In this document: one piece after another, positions 5,344 through 48,413 of the stretch
Layout of the letters: each line of letters starts with the position of its first letter
How positions within the stretch are numbered: the stretch's first letter is position 1
Assembly (NCBI GenBank): GCA_963718235.1
Contig: CAVQYR010000001.1
Span: forward strand, 640,001-704,000
Direction of reading: 5' to 3'
Length of the DNA: 64,000 nucleotides
Source of the DNA: an uncultured Actinomycetota bacterium
GTDB lineage: Bacteria; Actinomycetota; Actinomycetes; JAHEKZ01
Position numbers and translations under genes: made by a program
Notes under the pieces: model-generated
Database searches by the model: none
Told to the model about the DNA's origin: nothing
Seen by the model: the letters and a program-made list of their open reading frames with translations, nothing else

Positions 5344-6651
5344 GTGACTGCGACTGCCCGCCCGGCCGACCGCCGCGACGACGCCGACGTGATCGTCGTC
5401 GGTGCCGGGCCCGCCGGCTCGACGACGGCCCACCACCTGGCCCGGTCGGGCCTGGACGTCCTGCTCCTGGAGAAGACCGCGTTCCCCCGGGAGAAGGTCT
5501 GCGGTGACGGACTCACCCCCCGCGCGGTCAAGGAGCTGCTAGCGATCGGTGTCGAGCCGAGCGCCGAGAGCGGCTGGGTCCGCAACCACGGCCTGCGGAT
5601 CATCGGGGGTGGCATGCGCCTGGAGCTGCCGTGGCCGGAGCTCTCGTCGTTTCCGGACTACGGGCTCGTCCGCACCAGGACCGACTTCGACGAGATCGTC
5701 GCCCGGCAGGCCCAGAAGGCCGGAGCCCGGCTCCACGAACGGACCACGGTCACCGGGCCCGTCCTCGACGCCCAAGGGTCGATCGTCGGGGTGACCGCGC
5801 GAACCACCGAGCCGGACGGTGCCCGCGGACCCGCCACCGAGTTCCGGGCTCCACTGGTGGTCGCTGCGGACGGCAACTCCACCCGGCTGTCCCTGGCGAT
5901 GGGACTGCGCAAGCGCGACGACCGGCCCATGGGGGTGGCCGTGCGCACGTACTACACGAGCCCGCGCACCGACGACGACTGGCTGGAGTCCTGGCTGGAG
6001 CTGTGGCAGGAGCACGAGGGCGGCGCCCGCAGCCTGCTGCCCGGCTACGGCTGGATCTTCGGTGTCGGGGACGGCACCGTCAACGTCGGACTCGGAATCC
6101 TCAACTCCAGCTCGGCCTTCGGCCGAGTCGACTACCGCAACCTGCTCACGAGCTGGGTCGAGAGCACGCCGGAGGAGTGGGGCCTGCGGGAGGCCAACCG
6201 CACCCAGCCGGTCCGCGGCGCCGCGCTGCCGATGGGCTTCAACCGGACCCCTCACTACACGCGAGGTCTCCTGCTGGTCGGCGACGCCGGGGGGATGGTC
6301 AACCCGTTCAACGGGGAGGGCATCGCGTACGCCATGGAGTCGGGGCGGATGGCGGCCGACGTCATCGTCCAGGCTGCGGGCCGGGAGACCGCGTCCTCCC
6401 GTGAGCGAGCCCTGGAGGCCTACCCGCAGGCCCTCAAGGACGCGTACGGCGGCTACTACACGCTGGGGCGGGTCTTCGTGAAGCTGATCGGCCACCCCTC
6501 GGTGATGAAGGTGGCCACCCGCCACGGGCTCCCGCACCCGACGCTGATGCGGTTCACCCTGAAGCTGCTCGCCAACCTGACCGACCCCCGAGACGGCGAC
6601 GCCATGGACCGGGTCATCAACGCCCTGACGAAGGTGGCCCCCGCCGCGTGA
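5344..6651 (+). CDS. menJ: Geranylgeranyl reductase family protein, menaquinone reductase
   Basis: GAGPAG FAD motif, FPREKVCGDGLT, GYGWIF, GDAGGMVNPFNGEGI; sits between menG and nuoA. Confidence 0.85.
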   Translation: MTATARPADRRDDADVIVVGAGPAGSTTAHHLARSGLDVLLLEKTAFPREKVCGDGLTPRAVKELLAIGVEPSAESGWVRNHGLRIIGGGMRLELPWPELSSFPDYGLVRTRTDFDEIVARQAQKAGARLHERTTVTGPVLDAQGSIVGVTARTTEPDGARGPATEFRAPLVVAADGNSTRLSLAMGLRKRDDRPMGVAVRTYYTSPRTDDDWLESWLELWQEHEGGARSLLPGYGWIFGVGDGTVNVGLGILNSSSAFGRVDYRNLLTSWVESTPEEWGLREANRTQPVRGAALPMGFNRTPHYTRGLLLVGDAGGMVNPFNGEGIAYAMESGRMAADVIVQAAGRETASSRERALEAYPQALKDAYGGYYTLGRVFVKLIGHPSVMKVATRHGLPHPTLMRFTLKLLANLTDPRDGDAMDRVINALTKVAPAA

Positions 6652-6733
6652 CCGGGAGCCACGTCCCTAGGATGGGCGCCGGTCCGGAGCCGGTCGCCGG
6701 GCGTCACGACTTTCGGGAAAGGGGCCGTGCACG

Positions 6734-7093
6734 ATGAACGCTGCGGTGCCGATCCTCTTCCTCGGGGCACTGGCCCTGGGGTTCGCGGTCTTCTCCATCA
6801 TCGCCGGCGCAGTGTCGGGTCCGAAGCGGTACAACCGGGTCAAGCTCGACTCCTACGAGTGCGGCATCGAGCCCACGCCGCAACCGGTCGGTGGCGGTCG
6901 GTTCCCGGTCAAGTACTTCCTGATCGCGATGCTGTTCATCCTGTTCGACATCGAGATCGTCTTCCTCTACCCGTGGGCGGTCGCCTTCGACCAGCTCGGG
7001 CTGTTCGGCCTGGTGGAGATGGTGCTGTTCATCACGACGCTCGCCATCGCCTACGTGTACGTGTGGCGCCGCGGCGGGCTCGAGTGGGACTGA
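6734..7093 (+). CDS. nuoA: NADH-quinone oxidoreductase subunit A
   Basis: [19 protein letters not shown]. Confidence 0.96.
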
Positions 7094-7121
7094 TGCCGGT
7101 GAGCAGAGAGGGGACCGCCTG

Positions 7122-7676
7122 ATGGGCCTGGAGGAGAAGCTCCCCAGCGGAGTGCTGCTGACCTCGGTCGAGCTGTTCGCCGGCTGGGCGCGCAAGAGCT
7201 CGCTGTGGCCGGCGACGTTCGGTCTCGCCTGCTGCGCGATCGAGATGATGGCGACCGGCGCGGGTCGCTACGACCTGGCCCGCTTCGGCATGGAGGTGTT
7301 CCGGGCGTCGCCGCGCCAGGCTGACCTGATGATCGTGGCCGGTCGGGTGAGCCAGAAGATGGCACCGGTCCTGCGTCAGATCTACGACCAGATGGCCGAA
7401 CCCAAGTGGGTCATCTCGATGGGTGCCTGCGCCTCGAGCGGCGGCATGTTCAACAACTACGCGATCGTGCAGGGTGTCGACCACGTCGTCCCCGTCGACA
7501 TCTACCTGCCCGGATGCCCACCCCGGCCCGAGATGCTGCTCGATGCGATCCTGAAGCTGCACGACGAGATCCAGCACACCAAGCTCGGCGCCCACCGCAA
7601 GCGCGAGCTCGACGAGCTCGAGGCATCGGCGCTGACGGCGGTCCCGACGAGCGCGATGAAGGGGCTGCTGGCGTGA
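7122..7676 (+). CDS. nuoB: NADH-quinone oxidoreductase subunit B
   Basis: [22 protein letters not shown]. Confidence 0.96.
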
Positions 7677-8380
7677 CCGACCCGCACGACGACCCCGCGC
7701 TTCCGGCCGTGCCGGAGGACGCCCCGATCACCTTGGACGTGGTCGAGGTGCGGCACGGCATGTTCGGGGCGGGCGACGCTGGTGACACCAGTGGCTACGG
7801 GGGCCTGGTCGCCCCGGTCCTGGCCGCTCCGCCGGCATCCCGGCCGTACGGAGGGTGGTTCGACGAGGTCGCCGACGCCCTGGTCGCTGCCCTGCCGGGC
7901 TACGACGAGGCCGTCGAGAAGGTCGTCGTGGCCCACGACGAGCTGACATTCTTCGTCGCCCGCGAGCACCTCGTCGAGTTCGCCCAGCACCTGCGTGACG
8001 ACCCCGCACTGCGGTTCGAGATGTGTCTGGGGGTCAGCGGAGTCCACTGGCCGCACGAGTCCGGCCGTGAGCTGCACGCGGTGTACCCGTTCCTGTCGAT
8101 CACGCACAACCGACGGGTCCGGGTCACTGTGACGTGCCCTGACGCCGACCCGCACATCCCCTCGATCTACTCGGTGTACCCGGCCAACGACTGGCACGAG
8201 CGTGAGACCTACGACTTCTTCGGCATCATCTTCGACGGGCACCCGTCGCTGACCAGGATCGAGATGCCCGACGACTGGCCCGGGCACCCGCAGCGCAAGG
8301 ACTACCCGCTGGGTGGCATCCCGGTCGAGTACAAGGGTGCCGAGATCCCACCGCCGGACGAGCGGAGGCAGTACTTCTGA
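7673..8380 (+). CDS. nuoC: NADH-quinone oxidoreductase subunit C
   Basis: [22 protein letters not shown]; GTG start overlaps the nuoB stop. Confidence 0.94.
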
Positions 8381-9741
8381 TGACCACGACCGACCAGCAC
8401 CCCTATGACGACCCCGACGTCTCCGCGCCGTCACGGGAGACCACCGAGGGCCGCATCTACACCGTGACCGGCGGCGACTGGGACACGTTCGCGGCAGAGG
8501 CGGCCGAGTCGGGTGAGGGCACGCTCGTCGTCAACATGGGGCCGCAGCACCCCTCGACCCACGGTGTGCTCCGGCTGATCCTCGAGCTCGACGGCGAGAC
8601 CGTGCGCGAGACGCGCTGCGGCATCGGCTACCTGCACACCGGGATCGAGAAGAACCTGGAGTTCCGCACCTGGACGCAGGGCGTCACCTTCGTGACCCGG
8701 ATGGACTACCTGTCGCCGTTCTACAACGAGACCGCCTACAGCATGGCCGTGGAGAAGCTGCTGGGGATCACCGACGACGTCCCTCGCCGGGCCAACCTGC
8801 TGCGGATCCTGCTCATGGAGCTCAACCGGATCTCCTCGCACCTGGTGTGCATCGCGACCGGCGGCATGGAGATCGGCGCCCTCACCGTGATGACGATCGG
8901 CTTCCGGGAGCGCGAGCTGGTGCTCGACCTGTTCGAGCTGATCACCGGACTCCGGCTCAACCACGCCTACGTGCGCCCTGGAGGCGTCGCCCAGGACCTC
9001 CCGGACGGTGCGTACGAGGACATCCGCGACTTCTACGTGCTCATGTCCGAGCGGATCAAGGACTACATCGACCTGTGCAACGAGAACCCGATCTTCAAGG
9101 GGCGGTTGCAGGACGTCGGGTACCTCGACCTGGCCGGGTGCATGGCCCTGGGCATGACCGGGCCGGTGCTCCGCTCCACGGGGCTGCCCTGGGACCTCCG
9201 CCGCACCCAGCCGTACCTCGGCTACGACGAGCTCGAGTTCGACGTCCCCACGTGGGACACCTGCGACGCCTACGGGCGCTTCCGGATCCGGCTGGAGGAG
9301 ATGGTCGAGTCCCTGCGCATCATCAAGCAGGTGGCCATCGCGCTCGAGGACGAGGGGCCGGGGCCGGTCATGGTCGGCGACCCCAAGATCGCGTGGCCGG
9401 CGCAGCTGTCCCTCGGCCCCGACGGGCTGGGCAACTCCCGCGCGCACATCGAGCACATCATGACCCAGTCGATGGAGGCGCTCATCCATCACTTCAAGCT
9501 CGTCACCGAGGGCTTCCGGGTGCCGGCCGGGCAGGTCTACGCGGCGATCGAGTCACCGCGGGGCGAGCTCGGTGCGCAGGTCACCAGCGACGGCGGCACA
9601 CGCCCCTACCGGATGCACATGCGCGACCCCTCGTTCAACAACCTGCAGGCCACGGCGGCCATGTGCGACGGCAGCCAGATCGCCGACGTGATCGTGGCCG
9701 TGGCATCGATCGACCCGGTCATGGGCGGTGTCGACCGATGA
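8380..9741 (+). CDS. nuoD: NADH-quinone oxidoreductase subunit D
   Basis: [35 protein letters not shown]. Confidence 0.96.
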
Positions 9742-43729: not shown

Positions 43730-43779
43730 GACGCCAGCGTGGCAGGTCGGGACCTTTGGCCGTCGCCGAGGGGGACTAC

Positions 43780-43795
43780 GTACCCTGGGGGGTAC
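43780..43795. promoter_or_regulatory. Putative CsoR/RcnR/CstR-family operator
   Basis: Palindrome GTACCC-TGGG-GGGTAC with a G-tract, in the -35 region of a TAGCCT -10 box (43809-43814). Confidence 0.55.
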
Positions 43796-43805
43796 CCGTC
43801 GACCG

Positions 43806-43868
43806 GCATAGCCTGCAAGACATGCAGAGCATGCAGGACCGGCAGGAGCAGCAGGAGCAGCAGGTGAG
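43806..43868 (+). repeat. Degenerate 9-bp tandem repeat (7 units)
   Basis: GCA at 43806, 43815, 43824, 43833, 43842, 43851 and 43860. Confidence 0.7.
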
Positions 43869-44463
43869 CCTGCTCACCGCCGAGCACGTGAGCCGGCTGC
43901 TGCACATCGACGCCTCGACGGTCTACCGGATGGCCGGCGACGGCCGGCTCCCGGCGGTCAAGGTCGGTCGTCAGTGGCGGTTCCCGGCGGACCGGATCGC
44001 CCGGCTGCTGGACCTGGGCCCGGGAGCACCGGACCTGGACTCCCGCCAGGCGCAGCCGGTGATCGACGTCGCCGCGGAGCTGCTCGGCGTGATGATGGTC
44101 GTCACGGACATGCAGGGCCGCCCGATCACCCAGGTCGCCAACCCCTGCCCGTGGTTCGCCGACCGAGGCTCCGACCCCGACGTGGTCCAACGCTGCGCGG
44201 AGGAGTGGCACGCGCTGGCCGACGACCTCGACTTCGACCCGCGCTTTCGGCCCGGCTCCCTCGGGTTCGAGTGCGCCCGCGCGTTCGTCCGCGAGGGAAG
44301 CCAGCTGGTCGGCATGGTCCTGGCCGGTGGGGTGGCGCCCGAGGAGTCCACCCGCGACGACCTGTACTCCCTGGACCCCACCCAACGACAGCACGTGCTG
44401 GTCACCTTGCCCAAGGTCGCAGCCACGCTCTCCCGCGTCGCACACGCTGCCCCAACCGCATGA
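43822..44463 (+). CDS. Excisionase-like HTH (HTH_17/BldC type) fused to a PocR-like sensor domain
   Basis: LLTAEHVSRLLHIDASTVYRMAGDGRLPAVKVGRQWRF followed by a PocR-like region (VVTDMQGRPIT..NPC..RC..FECARAFV..GMVLAGG). Start is either ATG 43822 (leaderless) or GTG 43864 (AGGAG RBS). Confidence 0.75.
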   Translation: MQSMQDRQEQQEQQVSLLTAEHVSRLLHIDASTVYRMAGDGRLPAVKVGRQWRFPADRIARLLDLGPGAPDLDSRQAQPVIDVAAELLGVMMVVTDMQGRPITQVANPCPWFADRGSDPDVVQRCAEEWHALADDLDFDPRFRPGSLGFECARAFVREGSQLVGMVLAGGVAPEESTRDDLYSLDPTQRQHVLVTLPKVAATLSRVAHAAPTA

Positions 44464-44480
44464 CAGCCCAAGGAGAAACG

Positions 44481-45737
44481 ATGAAGCGCCTGCTCATCCT
44501 CGGCGGCGGAACCGCCGGCACGATGGTGGCCAACAAGCTGCGGCACCGACTGGGCGCCGACGAGTGGAGCATCACCGTCGTCGACCAGGACGACGTCCAC
44601 CTCTACCAGCCCGGCTACCTGTTCATCCCGTTCGGGATCTACCAGCCCGACGAGGTGGTGAAGCCACGCCACCAGTTCATCCCCGACGGGGTCGACCTGG
44701 TCCTCGCCGAGATCGACCGGGTGCTGCCCGACGAGAACAAGGTGCTGCTGGTCGGCGGCCGTGAGCTCGGCTACGACCAGCTCGTCATCGCCTCGGGCAC
44801 CACGCCACGACCGGACCAGACCCCCGGCATGGACGGCGAGCTGTTCCGCGACAGCGTCCACGAGTTCTACACCTATGACGGAGCGACGGCCCTGGGCGAG
44901 AAGCTGAAGACCTGGGAGGGCGGCCGGCTCGTCGTGCACATCGTGGACATGCCGATCAAGTGCCCGGTCGCGCCGTTGGAGTTCACCTTCCTGGCCGACG
45001 CCTTCTTCCGTGAGAACGGCGTGCGGGACCAGGTGGAGATCACCTATGTGACCCCGCTTCCCGGGGCGTTCACCAAGCCCGTGGCGTCGAGGTACCTCGG
45101 GGGCATGCTCGACGAGCGCAAGATCGCCCTGGAGTCGGACTTCATGGTCGAGCGCGTCGACGAGGAGACCAAGATGCTCGTCAGCTACGACGAGCGTGAG
45201 GTCCCGTTCGACCTGCTCGTCACGATCCCGCTGAACATGGGGGCGGACTTCGTCGCCCGCTCCGGGATGGGCGACGAGCTCAACTACGTCCCCGTCGACA
45301 AGGGAACGCTGCTCTCGACCGCCCACGACAACGTGTGGGCCGTCGGTGACGCGTCCAACATCCCAGCGTCCAAGGCTGGGTCGGTGGCGCACTTCTCGGT
45401 CGAGATCTTCACCGAGAACTTCCTGCACCACGTGCAGGGCCATGCGATGACCGAGAAGTTCGACGGACATGCCAACTGCTTCGTCGAGTCCGGTGCCGGG
45501 AAGGCGATGCTCATCGACTTCAACTACGACACCGAGCCGCTGCCCGGCAAGTACCCCCTGCCCGGAGTCGGACCGTTCAGCCTGCTGAAGGAGACCGAGG
45601 TCAACCACTGGGGCAAGCTGATGTTCCGCTGGATCTACTGGAACGCGCTGCTCCCTGGCCGTGAGCTCCCCCTGCCCGCCCTGATGTCGATGGTCGGCAA
45701 AGAGACGACGAAGGAATCCGTGGAGGTGGCGTCATGA
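44481..45737 (+). CDS. sqr: Sulfide:quinone oxidoreductase family flavoprotein (type III-like)
   Basis: GGGTAG FAD motif, HLYQPG, KCPVAPLE and FDGHANCF catalytic Cys motifs, VGDA..SKAG; AAGGAG RBS. Confidence 0.85.
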   Translation: MKRLLILGGGTAGTMVANKLRHRLGADEWSITVVDQDDVHLYQPGYLFIPFGIYQPDEVVKPRHQFIPDGVDLVLAEIDRVLPDENKVLLVGGRELGYDQLVIASGTTPRPDQTPGMDGELFRDSVHEFYTYDGATALGEKLKTWEGGRLVVHIVDMPIKCPVAPLEFTFLADAFFRENGVRDQVEITYVTPLPGAFTKPVASRYLGGMLDERKIALESDFMVERVDEETKMLVSYDEREVPFDLLVTIPLNMGADFVARSGMGDELNYVPVDKGTLLSTAHDNVWAVGDASNIPASKAGSVAHFSVEIFTENFLHHVQGHAMTEKFDGHANCFVESGAGKAMLIDFNYDTEPLPGKYPLPGVGPFSLLKETEVNHWGKLMFRWIYWNALLPGRELPLPALMSMVGKETTKESVEVAS

Positions 45738-46276
45738 CCGAGACCCTCGAGCGTCCGAGCGTCAGCACCGACGAGCGGCTGGAGCAGATCAGCGCGCAGG
45801 TGGCCGAGCTGACCGGCGCCCTCCACAGGCAGCAGGCCGAGCGCGAGCAGCTCACCGAGCTGCTGGGCGAGGTCAACCTGCTGGCCCGGCCGGTCATGGA
45901 CGTCGCGATGACCCGGTTCGGCGAGTTCGACGAGAAGGGGTACTTCGCCTTCGCCAAGGAGTCCGCCGGCATCGTCGACCACGTGGTCACCTCGTTCTCC
46001 CCGGAGGACGTACGAGCCCTCGGGGACAACGTCGTCACGATCCTGCAGACCGTGCGTGAGATGACCCAGCCCGAGGTGATGAACCTGGTCCGCCGCACGG
46101 CCGAGACGGCGCAGGGGACCGACGAGGAGATCACCACGCCACCGTCGACCTTCGCCCTCCTTCGCCAGATGCGTGACCCCGAGGTGCGCCGCGGACTGGC
46201 TCGCGTCATGTCCATGCTGCAGACCGTGGGCGCCGACGTCCCCTCCTCGCACCCCACGACCACAGACCCTCACTGA
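45734..46276 (+). CDS. DUF1641-like helical protein
   Basis: C-terminal PSTFALLRQMRDPEVRRGL motif; ATGA coupling to sqr. Confidence 0.75.
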   Translation: MTETLERPSVSTDERLEQISAQVAELTGALHRQQAEREQLTELLGEVNLLARPVMDVAMTRFGEFDEKGYFAFAKESAGIVDHVVTSFSPEDVRALGDNVVTILQTVREMTQPEVMNLVRRTAETAQGTDEEITTPPSTFALLRQMRDPEVRRGLARVMSMLQTVGADVPSSHPTTTDPH

Positions 46277-46297
46277 CCTGACCCGAAAGGAAAGACC

Positions 46298-46612
46298 ATG
46301 CCTGTCACCAGCCTCAACGGCCGCGACGTCCACGTGGACGACGAGGGCTTCCTCACCGAGTACGACGAGTGGGACGACGACCTCGGCAAGGTGCTCGCCT
46401 CCAACATCGGCATCGACCTCACCGACGAGCACTGGAAGGTCATCCACTTCCTGCGCGACGACTACAAGACCCAGGGCGAGACGGCGACCATTCGCCGCGT
46501 CTCGACCGTCGGTGGCGTGCCCACCAAGCAGCTCTTCACGCTGTTCCCCAAGAAGCCGGCCAAGAAGATGGCCTATGTCGCCGGTCTGCCCAAGCCGCAC
46601 GGCTGCGTGTGA
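46298..46612 (+). CDS. tusE: TusE/DsrC/DsvC family sulfur-relay protein
   Basis: VDDEGFL, LTDEHW, LFP, AGLPKPHGCV C-terminus. Confidence 0.88.
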   Translation: MPVTSLNGRDVHVDDEGFLTEYDEWDDDLGKVLASNIGIDLTDEHWKVIHFLRDDYKTQGETATIRRVSTVGGVPTKQLFTLFPKKPAKKMAYVAGLPKPHGCV

Positions 46613-46635
46613 GCACCCGAGAGGAAGCGATCACC

Positions 46636-47175
46636 ATGACCAGCACCACCGAGACCGCACCGGCCGTCGTCCCCAACTTCGACGACGAGGACTCCGGCGG
46701 CCGCAAGCTCGCGATCATCTGCTCCAAGGGCAACCTCGACATGGCGTACCCAGGTCTGATCCTGGCCAATGCCGCGCTCGGTGAGGGGGTCGAGACTCAC
46801 CTGTTCTTCACCTTCTGGGGCTTCGACATGATCACCAAGTCGCACATGCACGACCTGAAGTTCAGTCCGGTCGGCAACACCGCGATGCACATGCCGGTGG
46901 GCGACGTCCGCGTGCCGCAGGCCCTGGCCCCGCTGCCGGGCATGCAGCCGATGGCCACCAAGATGATCAAGAAGTCGATCGCGGACCTCGGCGTCCCCGA
47001 GGTGCCGGAGTTCCTCGACCTGATCGTGGCGTCCGGCGGGCACCTGTGGGCCTGCCGCATGTCCGCGGACATGAACAAGGTGACCGAGGACGACCTCTAC
47101 GAGGGGGTCGAGGCGATCATCAACGCCTCCGACTTCATCGAGCTCACCGACGGTGCCCAGCTGCTGTTCATCTGA
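46636..47175 (+). CDS. DsrE/DsrF/DrsH-like (DsrE2/YrkE-type) sulfurtransferase
   Basis: KLAIICSKGNLDMAYP, LFFTFWG, ACRMSADM, LLFI C-terminus. Confidence 0.85.
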   Translation: MTSTTETAPAVVPNFDDEDSGGRKLAIICSKGNLDMAYPGLILANAALGEGVETHLFFTFWGFDMITKSHMHDLKFSPVGNTAMHMPVGDVRVPQALAPLPGMQPMATKMIKKSIADLGVPEVPEFLDLIVASGGHLWACRMSADMNKVTEDDLYEGVEAIINASDFIELTDGAQLLFI

Positions 47176-47205: not shown

Positions 47206-48413
47206 TCAGTCGACGGCCTCGCCGAGCAGGGTCGCCATCCGCGACACTCCCTCGACGAGGTCGTCGTCGCCGAGCGCGTAGGACATGCGCAGGTACCCCG
47301 GCGTGCCGAAGGCCTCGCCGGGTACGACGGCGACCTCGGCCTCCTCGAGCAGCAGGTCGGCCAGCTCCAGTGAGGAGGTCGGACGGCGACCGCGGATCTG
47401 CCGGCCCAGCACGCCCTTGACCGATGGGTACGCGTAGAACGCCCCTTGGGGCTCCGGTGCCACGACGCCGGGGATCTCGTTGAGCAGCTTGACGATGGTC
47501 AGGCGTCGACGGTCGAAGGCCGCACGCATCATCACGACGTCGTCCAGGGTCCCGGTGACCGCTGCCAGAGCTGCTGCCTGCGCCACGTTGCTCACGTTGG
47601 ACGTGGAGTGCGACTGCAGGTTCACCGCGCCCTTGACGACGTCCCTGGGCCCGATCATCCAGCCCACCCGCCAACCGGTCATGGCGTAGGTCTTGGCCAC
47701 CCCGTTGACCACGATGCACCGGTCGGCGAGCTCGGGGACCAGCGTCGGCATGGAGGAGAACCGGGCGTCTCCGTAGACCAGGTGCTCGTAGATCTCGTCG
47801 GTGAGCACCCACAGGCCGTGCTGGAACGCCCACTGACCGATCGCCGCCACCTGCTCGGGCGGGTAGACCGCCCCGGTGGGGTTGGACGGGGAGACGAACA
47901 GGACCAGCTTCGTGCGGGGGGTGCGGGCCGCCTCGAGCTGCTCGACGGTGGCCAGGTAGCCGGTCGTCTCGTCGGTGTCGACGTACACCGGGACCCCACC
48001 GAACAGCTGGACCGCCTCGGGGTAGGTGACCCAGTAGGGGGCCTGGATGATGACCTCGTCACCGGGGTCGATCACTGCGGCCATCGCGTTGAAGATGGCC
48101 TGCTTGCCCCCGTTGGTGACCAGAACCTGGTCGGCGGACACCTCTAGCCGGAGTCCCGTCGGGTCTTGGCCGCGATGCCCTCGCGCAGCGCTGCGATGCC
48201 GGCGGCGGGGGAGTAGCGGTGGGTCCAGGGCTCGTGGACCGCCTTGGCGGCGGCCTCGACGATCAGGGCCGGGGTCGGGAAGTCCGGCTCGCCGGCCCCG
48301 AACCCGATGACCGGGCGGCCCGCCGCCTTGAGGGCCTTGGCCTTGGCGTCGACGGCCAGGGTGGCCGACTCGGCGATTCCGGCGACGCGGGTCGAAAGCC
48401 GTGAGGAGGTCAT
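47206..48413 (-). pseudogene. aspC: Aspartate aminotransferase (class I/II PLP), frameshifted at about 48145
   Basis: The N-terminal frame GAGEPDF..KTRRDSG ends in TAG; the protein continues [39 protein letters not shown] in another frame. Span is 1208 nt (3n-1). Confidence 0.85.

Follow-up and report, generated by a model that had tools for sequence, protein, structure and literature searches.

A five-gene actinobacterial operon combining a type III sulfide:quinone reductase with putative DsrC-like and DsrE-like sulfur carriers

The cst-type heterotrophic sulfide oxidation of Staphylococcus aureus makes use of CstR, sulfide:quinone reductase (SQR), a persulfide dioxygenase-rhodanese and TauE. 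Other systems that combine an SQR with sulfur-carrying or quinone-carrying partners have been reported. In Methylacidiphilum fumariolicum SolV, the operon MFUM_v2_0219-21 contains a type III SQR, TusA and DsrE2, is up 1.7-fold with H2S, and has been tied to the oxidation of H2S to zero-valent sulfur (PMC10205796). The DsrE4 group of Metallosphaera cuprina (prototype Mcup_1724) is described as 'encoded downstream of SQR' (PMC4175335), and a role in detoxifying reactive sulfur species has been proposed for it (PMC11094781). The DUF1641 or 'helical membrane plugin' (HMP) proteins form tubes that scaffold Ndh, Huc hydrogenase and ForCE formate dehydrogenase and carry menaquinone, as described in two papers of 2026, the scaffolding of Huc and ForCE dating from earlier work (PMC13524794, PMC13433803). 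Most of the HMP genes were reported to adjoin SQR genes, and SQR was regarded as the probable ancestral partner (PMC13433803). In our study, a stretch of 64,000 nucleotides from an uncultured Actinomycetota bacterium (assembly GCA_963718235.1, contig CAVQYR010000001.1, positions 640,001 to 704,000 of the forward strand; hereafter the window) was found to contain an operon of five genes, which encode an HTH-PocR regulator, an SQR, a DUF1641 protein, a DsrC/TusE-family protein and a DsrE-like protein, in this order. All five genes are present on the + strand within 43756-47175 of the window. The operon probably serves the cytoplasmic oxidation of sulfide to menaquinone together with a protein persulfide relay, here with a quinone-conduit scaffold.

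The operon of SolV resembles that of the window in its make-up, with a type III SQR gene ahead of the genes for a small sulfur carrier and a DsrE-family protein. The small carrier of SolV is TusA, whereas that of the window is a single-cysteine protein of the DsrC/TusE family; the host of the former belongs to another phylum, and no DUF1641 or HTH-PocR gene is mentioned in the available text of PMC10205796. The DsrE4 system shares with the window a DsrE-family protein downstream of sqr, the likeness being one of position, whereas it is archaeal and linked with tusA and the system of the window is actinobacterial. In the HMP-scaffolded Ndh-YjlC/Ncp, ForCE and Huc systems, as in the window, a quinone-reducing flavoenzyme has its gene right beside that of a small, all-helical protein whose C-terminal part carries the DUF1641 motif. 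The sequence similarity between the solved HMPs and the DUF1641 protein of the window is weak, and, unlike in the HMP systems, the SQR of the window retains a C-terminal amphipathic segment and many of the sister operons are without an HMP. The original prediction, made from the DNA sequence of the window, had called this a distinct system, which is too strong in view of these close analogues (PMC10205796, PMC4175335, PMC13433803); the pairing of SQR with DUF1641 is already published as comparative genomics (PMC13433803). The operon differs from the published systems by the single-cysteine DsrC-like carrier that replaces TusA, by the SQR fusions described below and by the HTH-PocR regulator, and our literature search found no publication on these three differences. 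The same search found none on the exact actinobacterial five-gene set, and the view that this set is uncharacterised was upheld.

The SQR gene (44481-45737, + strand) encodes 418 amino acids. Its product scored 646.7 bits against the NCBIfam model NF049943 (cut-off 525), the match covering residues 2-408 of 418. The title of the model is 'type III sulfide quinone reductase, selenoprotein subtype', and by this profile the flavoprotein is a type III SQR. The FAD-binding Rossmann region was matched by Pyr_redox_2 (E 6.2e-16). The nearest solved protein was human SQOR (E 5.6e-40), an SQR of type II. The solved FCSD and the SQRs of Acidianus, Acidithiobacillus and Aquifex ranked below human SQOR with E 4e-14 to 5e-10, the three SQRs by themselves with E 2e-12 to 5e-10. 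The protein contained just two cysteines, Cys161 and Cys333, and both were found to align with cysteines of human SQOR that are presumably the catalytic ones. The two residues were invariant in both alignments of relatives (A2 and A4), which reached down to 45% identity. The cut-off of the family model was exceeded and both cysteines were aligned with those of human SQOR, which supports the assignment of the flavoprotein as an SQR. A further relative of the type III SQR with 45% identity (P0134, 568 amino acids) contained a C-terminal pair of CBS domains and no sulfur carrier.

Of 401 Actinomycetota genomes sampled evenly, 32 were found to contain a match over the NF049943 cut-off. At E <= 1e-50 the sample contained 104 matches, including weaker SQR-like paralogues and the genome G121. 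An in-frame TGA was present in seven of the matches over the family cut-off. Two distant relatives with 42-44% identity to the SQR of the window were examined (L124, G227:C1:30000-36500, and L125, G118:C30:250000-256500), and in both of these type III relatives the TGA aligned exactly with Cys333. Their SQRs are presumably selenoproteins, in which the TGA would be read as selenocysteine. The alignment of TGA with Cys333 points to this residue as redox-active and shows the protein of the window to be the cysteine form. With hidden Markov models (HMMs) built from the actinobacterial orthologues, no DsrC-like, DsrE-like, DUF1641 or regulator gene was detected within about 2.3-3 kb of these two sqr genes. 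Selenocysteine was also considered for close relatives and was rejected, as the TGA of one (L024) is a normal stop and the gene of another (L034) is frameshifted; genuine in-frame TGA codons were confined to the distant relatives. In the latter locus (L034/L039, G010:C1:173419-177655), the frameshift lies near residue 289 of the sqr orthologue, and no damage is apparent in the DUF1641, DsrC-like and dsrE genes that follow it.

The conservation of the gene set was studied in two surveys. The first comprised 41 genomes, namely that of the window and 40 relatives, and an SQR orthologue at the threshold of E <= 1e-150 was found in 21 of the 41. In the loci of the relatives, a DsrC-like gene and dsrE were present after sqr wherever the contig permits. 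The DUF1641 gene was found between sqr and the carrier gene in 15 loci and was missing in 5, in which sqr and the carrier gene are immediate neighbours; the regulator gene was present upstream of sqr in 5. Eight paralogous SQR loci (about 30% identity) were devoid of any partner gene. The second survey was queried with an alignment of nine sequences and comprised one genome per species, the best 80 of 593 relatives being taken, and the partner genes were detected with HMMs built from the relatives. All 80 loci belonged to Actinomycetota, including Nocardioides, Micromonospora, Kribbella, Nakamurella, Cellulosimicrobium, Terrabacter and metagenome-assembled genomes of Acidimicrobiia. The trio of sqr, DsrC-like gene and dsrE was found in 78 of the 80 loci, and the other two reach the end of the contig within about 70 nt of sqr. 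The DUF1641 gene was present in 29 loci and the regulator gene upstream of sqr in 24, of which 22 also contained DUF1641; the 49 complete DUF1641-free loci contained the regulator once. No conserved neighbour was found outside the operon in these loci, the largest non-regulator clusters having 3-4 members. A CsoR-like gene was present near three loci. The arrangement is far beyond chance, because the gene order recurs in the genomes of 20 relatives and in 78 of 80 further loci. The conserved core consists of sqr, the DsrC-like gene and dsrE only, and the expected conservation of the whole set therefore holds for this trio, with DUF1641 and the regulator confined to a subset.

The gene of the DsrC/TusE-family protein (46298-46612, + strand) encodes a putative sulfur carrier of 104 amino acids, which matched PF04358 with E 1.5e-33. 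It scored 85.8 bits on the broad TusE/DsrC/DsvC family TIGR03342 (cut-off 53.5) and 70.9 bits on the equivalog of the E. coli-type TusE, NF008562 (cut-off 191), and it was nearer to solved DsrC (E about 1e-18) than to one solved sulfurtransferase match (4e-7). Its earlier designation as TusE is thus correct for the family and not for the name. A DsrC that serves as a substrate of DsrAB has two C-terminal cysteines, one being the penultimate residue and the other standing some 10 residues before it. The carrier of the window contained a single cysteine, Cys103, which is its penultimate residue, and a tyrosine replaces the second cysteine of DsrC. The DsrE-like protein of the DrsE_2 family (46636-47175, + strand; 179 amino acids), also a putative sulfur carrier, matched PF13686 with E 7e-31 (107.7 bits, cut-off 25) and scored 119.4 bits on the DsrE2 equivalog NF047629, below its cut-off of 210. 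Cys29 and Cys139 were kept in all its orthologues, and Cys139 aligned with a cysteine of the chains 2qs7 and 3mc3. The retention of the carrier cysteines, as originally expected, was confirmed by alignment for Cys103 of the DsrC-like protein and for Cys29 and Cys139 of the DsrE-like protein. The position of the latter downstream of sqr fits the 'DsrE4' context by analogy.

Among the representatives of a protein library clustered at 50% identity, two SQRs with a C-terminal DsrC/TusE domain were found. One of these (P0166, 562 amino acids) represents a cluster of 263 members, and among the members listed are Mobiluncus RefSeq proteins, seen on as many as 58 contigs; the other (P0125, 581 amino acids) is a singleton. 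The carrier domain of P0166 showed 40% identity to the carrier of the window (E 5e-28) and retained the C-terminal cysteine. These fusions are strong, though circumstantial, support for a direct action of the carrier on SQR. The fixed order of sqr, DsrC-like gene and dsrE, together with the natural fusions, points to a protein as the acceptor of sulfane sulfur. The 90%-identity cluster of P0166 also lists DsrE-like proteins of 176-190 amino acids (e.g., P0275), which do not align with the fusion, and Mobiluncus therefore also has a DsrE-like partner. Fusions of SQR with Rhd442 are known in Cupriavidus (Xin et al., 2016, cited in the available text of PMC11094781). As in Mobiluncus, the SQR of Cupriavidus is covalently joined to a protein that takes sulfane sulfur, whereas the fused domain is a rhodanese-type DUF442 in Cupriavidus and a DsrC/TusE-family domain in Mobiluncus.

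The DUF1641 protein (45734-46276, + strand; 180 amino acids), a putative quinone-conduit scaffold, scored 33.7 bits on PF07849 (cut-off 21) over residues 136-162 in its C-terminal part. A profile of 22 DUF1641 sequences matched ForE1 (E 8e-4), YjlC (0.023) and Ncp (0.052) in the Protein Data Bank (PDB). The AlphaFold2 model of the monomer was all-helical with five helices (mean pLDDT 76, pTM 0.30), and a Foldseek search of the PDB with this model returned 2 matches, none of them significant, the top one being the YjlC model 9a63_A (E 0.51, probability 0.25). The protein is thus small and all-helical by model, and its gene lies beside that of a quinone-reducing oxidoreductase; it is the sole DUF1641 gene in the genome. 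It is without cysteine and would therefore not take part in a sulfur relay. The SQR-linked DUF1641 proteins (alignment A3) were found in a long form of about 231-251 amino acids and a short form of about 180, to which that of the window belongs. Some 58 residues, which form a helical segment behind the N-terminal helix of the long form, are missing from the short form, and the proteins of L028 and L047 contained internal deletions in the central region. The prediction of a complex between SQR (A4) and DUF1641 (A3) scored 0.00 in two runs and is evidence neither way.

To relate the SQR to the DUF1641 gene, 43 DUF1641-linked and 54 DUF1641-free SQRs were compared, with L045 and L092 dropped because of contig ends. 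The Jaccard index for DUF1641 linkage was >= 0.7 at 4 of the 418 SQR positions, and 3 of these were present in residues 373-395, in the C-terminal amphipathic segment. Glu373 was found in 40 of the 43 linked SQRs and in none of the 54 free ones, Met381 in 34 and 1, and Glu/Asp395 in 41 and 0, respectively. A tree of the SQRs was built with IQ-TREE ('quick') from columns 1-355 only, the C-terminal columns being left out. The tree showed at least 9 changes of the DUF1641 state. Four independent pairs were well supported, and in these the residues 373 and 395 changed together with DUF1641 in almost all random pairings (mean 3.9 and 4.0 of 4, respectively) and never in the opposite direction. Ndh docks on YjlC through a C-terminal region equivalent to SQR 373-395, and the available text of PMC13524794 and PMC13433803 contains no SQR-HMP complex shown by structure or biochemistry (docking of Ndh: PMC13433803). 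The residue correlation fits a docking of SQR on DUF1641 and does not prove it.

The genome comprises 3.17 Mb in 2 contigs and is 95% complete. It was found to contain one DsrC/TusE-family gene, one TusA gene, 9 rhodanese matches, two DrsE_2 genes and MnmA. No dsrA was found in this 95% complete genome, and its CCG (HdrB-type) domains were confined to one frame of 1060 amino acids. Contig 2 contained a cst-like row (L012, G000:C2:152000-168000, about 6245-9534) of a CsoR/CstR-family repressor, a rhodanese, a 505-amino-acid fusion of a metallo-beta-lactamase (MBL) domain with a rhodanese, another rhodanese and TauE. The repressor is the sole CsoR/CstR-family gene of the genome, and the best solved relatives of the fusion were 3tp9 (1.2e-57), 3r2u (1.1e-39) and ETHE1 (3.4e-16). 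The window's genome thus resembles the cst-type in that a single operon encodes a repressor of the CsoR/CstR family together with rhodaneses, an MBL-rhodanese fusion and TauE, whereas this operon is without SQR and lies on another contig than the SQR operon. The latter, unlike the cst-type, contains no persulfide dioxygenase (PDO) or rhodanese, and its carriers are of other protein families. Contig 1 contained a second module on one strand (L013, G000:C1:46000-58000), with DrsE_2 (dsrE2), TusA, a Fer4/NrfD fusion and a molybdopterin oxidoreductase of 962 amino acids, which is polysulfide/thiosulfate-reductase-like (Psr-like); a divergent rhodanese-MBL fusion is present beside it. A SulP-like transporter and an ArsR-like regulator, named by eye, were seen near this module. 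Altogether, two PDO-like MBL/rhodanese fusions are present in the genome, both outside the SQR operon. The partners described earlier as lacking are indeed absent from the locus in the case of PDO and rhodanese, and dsrA was not found in the genome; outside the locus, PDO-rhodanese fusions are present in trans. Since PDO and rhodanese are present in the genome, the SQR module may feed the ordinary heterotrophic route in trans. The menaquinone genes were said to lie in the same window, and menD was found about 21.5 kb outside it.

The family assignments, the conserved gene order, the SQR fusions and the correlated residues are observed; from them we infer the following steps of sulfur transfer, docking and signalling. 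The type III SQR would face the cytoplasm and oxidise H2S at Cys161 and Cys333, and two electrons would pass via FAD to menaquinone. The sulfane sulfur bound to SQR would not be freed as polysulfide; it would be taken by the DsrC-like carrier, at the penultimate cysteine of its flexible C-terminal arm, and the DsrE-like protein would take the sulfur next or in parallel with that carrier. The carriers would then hand the sulfur to enzymes encoded elsewhere, such as the persulfide dioxygenase-rhodanese fusions, TusA and the TauE sulfite exporter. In the DUF1641-bearing operons, DUF1641 would form a helical tube on which SQR docks through its C-terminal amphipathic segment, and the tube would pipe menaquinone between the membrane and SQR, as HucM, ForE and YjlC/Ncp do for other enzymes. 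A more far-reaching picture, which we put forward tentatively, is that a protein, rather than a low-molecular-weight thiol, is the sulfane-sulfur acceptor of the actinobacterial SQR, with the DsrC-like protein as a 'swinging arm' that reaches into the active site and that has become part of the enzyme in Mobiluncus. In one lineage of the operon, the SQR would have moved off the membrane surface onto the DUF1641 tube and would be held there by the acidic residues 373 and 395 of its C-terminal helices, which would make it a fourth class of quinone-piped respiratory complex, along with a cysteine-based PocR sensor of sulfane sulfur.

Several points weigh against the proposed sulfide oxidation with relay and conduit. 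The induction of the SolV operon is small (1.7-fold), and that operon contains TusA instead of a DsrC-like protein (PMC10205796, available text). MnmA is present in the genome, so the carriers could serve biosynthesis. As to the conduit, 49 of the 78 complete loci have no DUF1641 gene, and SQR keeps its C-terminal amphipathic segment in both kinds of locus, so that SQR may bind the membrane alone, with DUF1641 dispensable or otherwise employed. The family assignment of the DUF1641 protein is weak beyond the 27-residue Pfam motif (profile E 8e-4 to 0.05, Foldseek E 0.51, pTM 0.30). The sign test for the tracking residues gave p 0.125, which cannot reach significance with 4 pairs, and the sites were picked post hoc. 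No longer protein (>= 441 amino acids) containing this DUF1641 was found at E 1e-5 or better, which is weak evidence.

Alternatively, DUF1641 could be an assembly, stability or regulatory factor co-inherited with the regulator in a single lineage of the operon, the residue correlation then reflecting shared descent. The co-occurrence of the two genes (both in 22 loci, and the regulator in 1 of the 49 complete loci without DUF1641) agrees with this explanation, as do the placement of the DUF1641-linked loci mostly in one clade, the working of the core without DUF1641 in most of the genomes and the non-significant structural similarity to the solved HMPs. Against it stand the at least 9 state changes on the tree, with residues 373 and 395 co-changing in the 4 supported pairs and never oppositely, and the finding that all three solved DUF1641 systems are quinone conduits (PMC13524794, PMC13433803, available text). 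We consider such a role of DUF1641 unlikely.

The function of the carriers could likewise be a different one. The SQR could be an ordinary monotopic membrane enzyme, and the carriers could salvage sulfane sulfur for biosynthesis, namely tRNA thiolation through MnmA or the making of thio-cofactors, instead of belonging to a dissimilatory or detoxifying route. A precedent is E. coli, in which MnmA receives its sulfur from TusE and the DsrE homologues TusBCD, and in the genome of the window MnmA is present and the carrier of the operon is the only DsrC/TusE-family gene. This carrier, however, falls below the TusE equivalog (70.9 vs 191 bits) and is nearer to DsrC, the fusion with SQR ties it to sulfide turnover, and disposal genes for PDO, rhodanese and TauE are present in the genome. 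The operon was also found in just 32 of the 401 Actinomycetota genomes and hence is no housekeeping trait. Biosynthetic salvage is therefore quite improbable as the function of the carriers.

The original prediction had further left the direction of the reaction between sulfide oxidation and polysulfide reduction. By textbook potentials menaquinol is too weak a reductant for S0/HS-, and the option of reducing polysulfide with menaquinol is thermodynamically unfavourable. That the flavoprotein reduces polysulfide or persulfide with menaquinol or NAD(P)H, or oxidises a persulfide bound to the DsrC-like protein, and does not act on free sulfide, is highly improbable: redox enzymes of Dsr systems use DsrC-family proteins as substrates (PMC8477390, available text) and a Psr-like molybdoenzyme and dsrE2-tusA are present elsewhere in the genome, whereas the flavoprotein exceeds the cut-off of a curated type III SQR model, type III SQRs are reported to link the oxidation of H2S with the reduction of quinone (cited in the available text of PMC10205796), and the carrier is without the second cysteine needed for the redox cycling of DsrC.

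The first gene of the operon (43822-44463, + strand) encodes a transcription regulator with an N-terminal HTH_17 domain of the MerR/excisionase type (E 2e-12) and a C-terminal sensory PocR domain (E 5.4e-7), both from Pfam. Among 28 homologues, Cys126 was conserved in 27, Cys152 in 26 and Cys110 in 22. The HTH-PocR protein would activate the operon, and its signal may be sulfane sulfur detected through these conserved cysteines. In the titles and abstract openings of the literature searched, no link of the PocR domain (PF10114) to sulfide was found. The regulator gene is real, and its start was moved from 43780, as given originally, to the ATG at 43822, which agrees with the N-termini of the orthologues; the longest open reading frame begins at 43756. 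By its position only, the stretch that separates the divergent add and regulator genes (43730-43821) is the presumed promoter/operator region. The scans for sigma-70 promoters and terminators at the operon gave 0 sites and are uninformative at the genome GC content of about 70%, and the proposal of one upstream promoter was thus left unconfirmed. No operator was identified in the upstream region, where the inverted repeats are weak. Of the 20 sequencing runs listed, none was of RNA, and the best DNA run shares 0.54 of words.

The regulator gene and sqr are 17 nt apart, the sqr stop overlaps the DUF1641 start by 4 nt, and the next two spacers measure 21 nt and 23 nt; an AAGGAG ribosome-binding site is present upstream of sqr. 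The add gene (A_deaminase, E 3e-100) lies 92 nt upstream of the operon and is divergent, and a class I/II aminotransferase gene lies 30 nt downstream and is convergent. The presence of five co-oriented, tightly packed genes between add and aspC was confirmed from the open reading frames, the Pfam matches and the spacers. The aspC-like aminotransferase gene (- strand) is broken across two reading frames at 48140-48175 of the window; its N-terminal piece stops at a TAG at about 48144-48146, and the Aminotran_1_2 match (profile positions 69-355) resumes in the other frame. This looks like a one-base indel, which would be either an assembly error or the mark of a pseudogene. The GC content of the operon was 0.65-0.68 (window 44500-47000) and that of the flanks was higher, 0.69-0.75. 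The lower GC content and the neighbours, which vary between genomes, fit an operon that moves as a unit.

The operon marks about 1 in 12 of the sampled Actinomycetota genomes (32/401) as likely sulfide oxidisers, and its spread matters for the sulfur cycle of communities in freshwater and sediment. To our knowledge, Actinobacteria lack glutathione, and the operon makes it testable which molecule takes the sulfane sulfur from SQRs in bacteria without glutathione. It likewise makes testable whether SQRs form quinone-piped complexes with DUF1641/HMP tubes, for which ready controls and mutants are provided by the operon forms that have or lack DUF1641 and by the SQR residues that vary with it.

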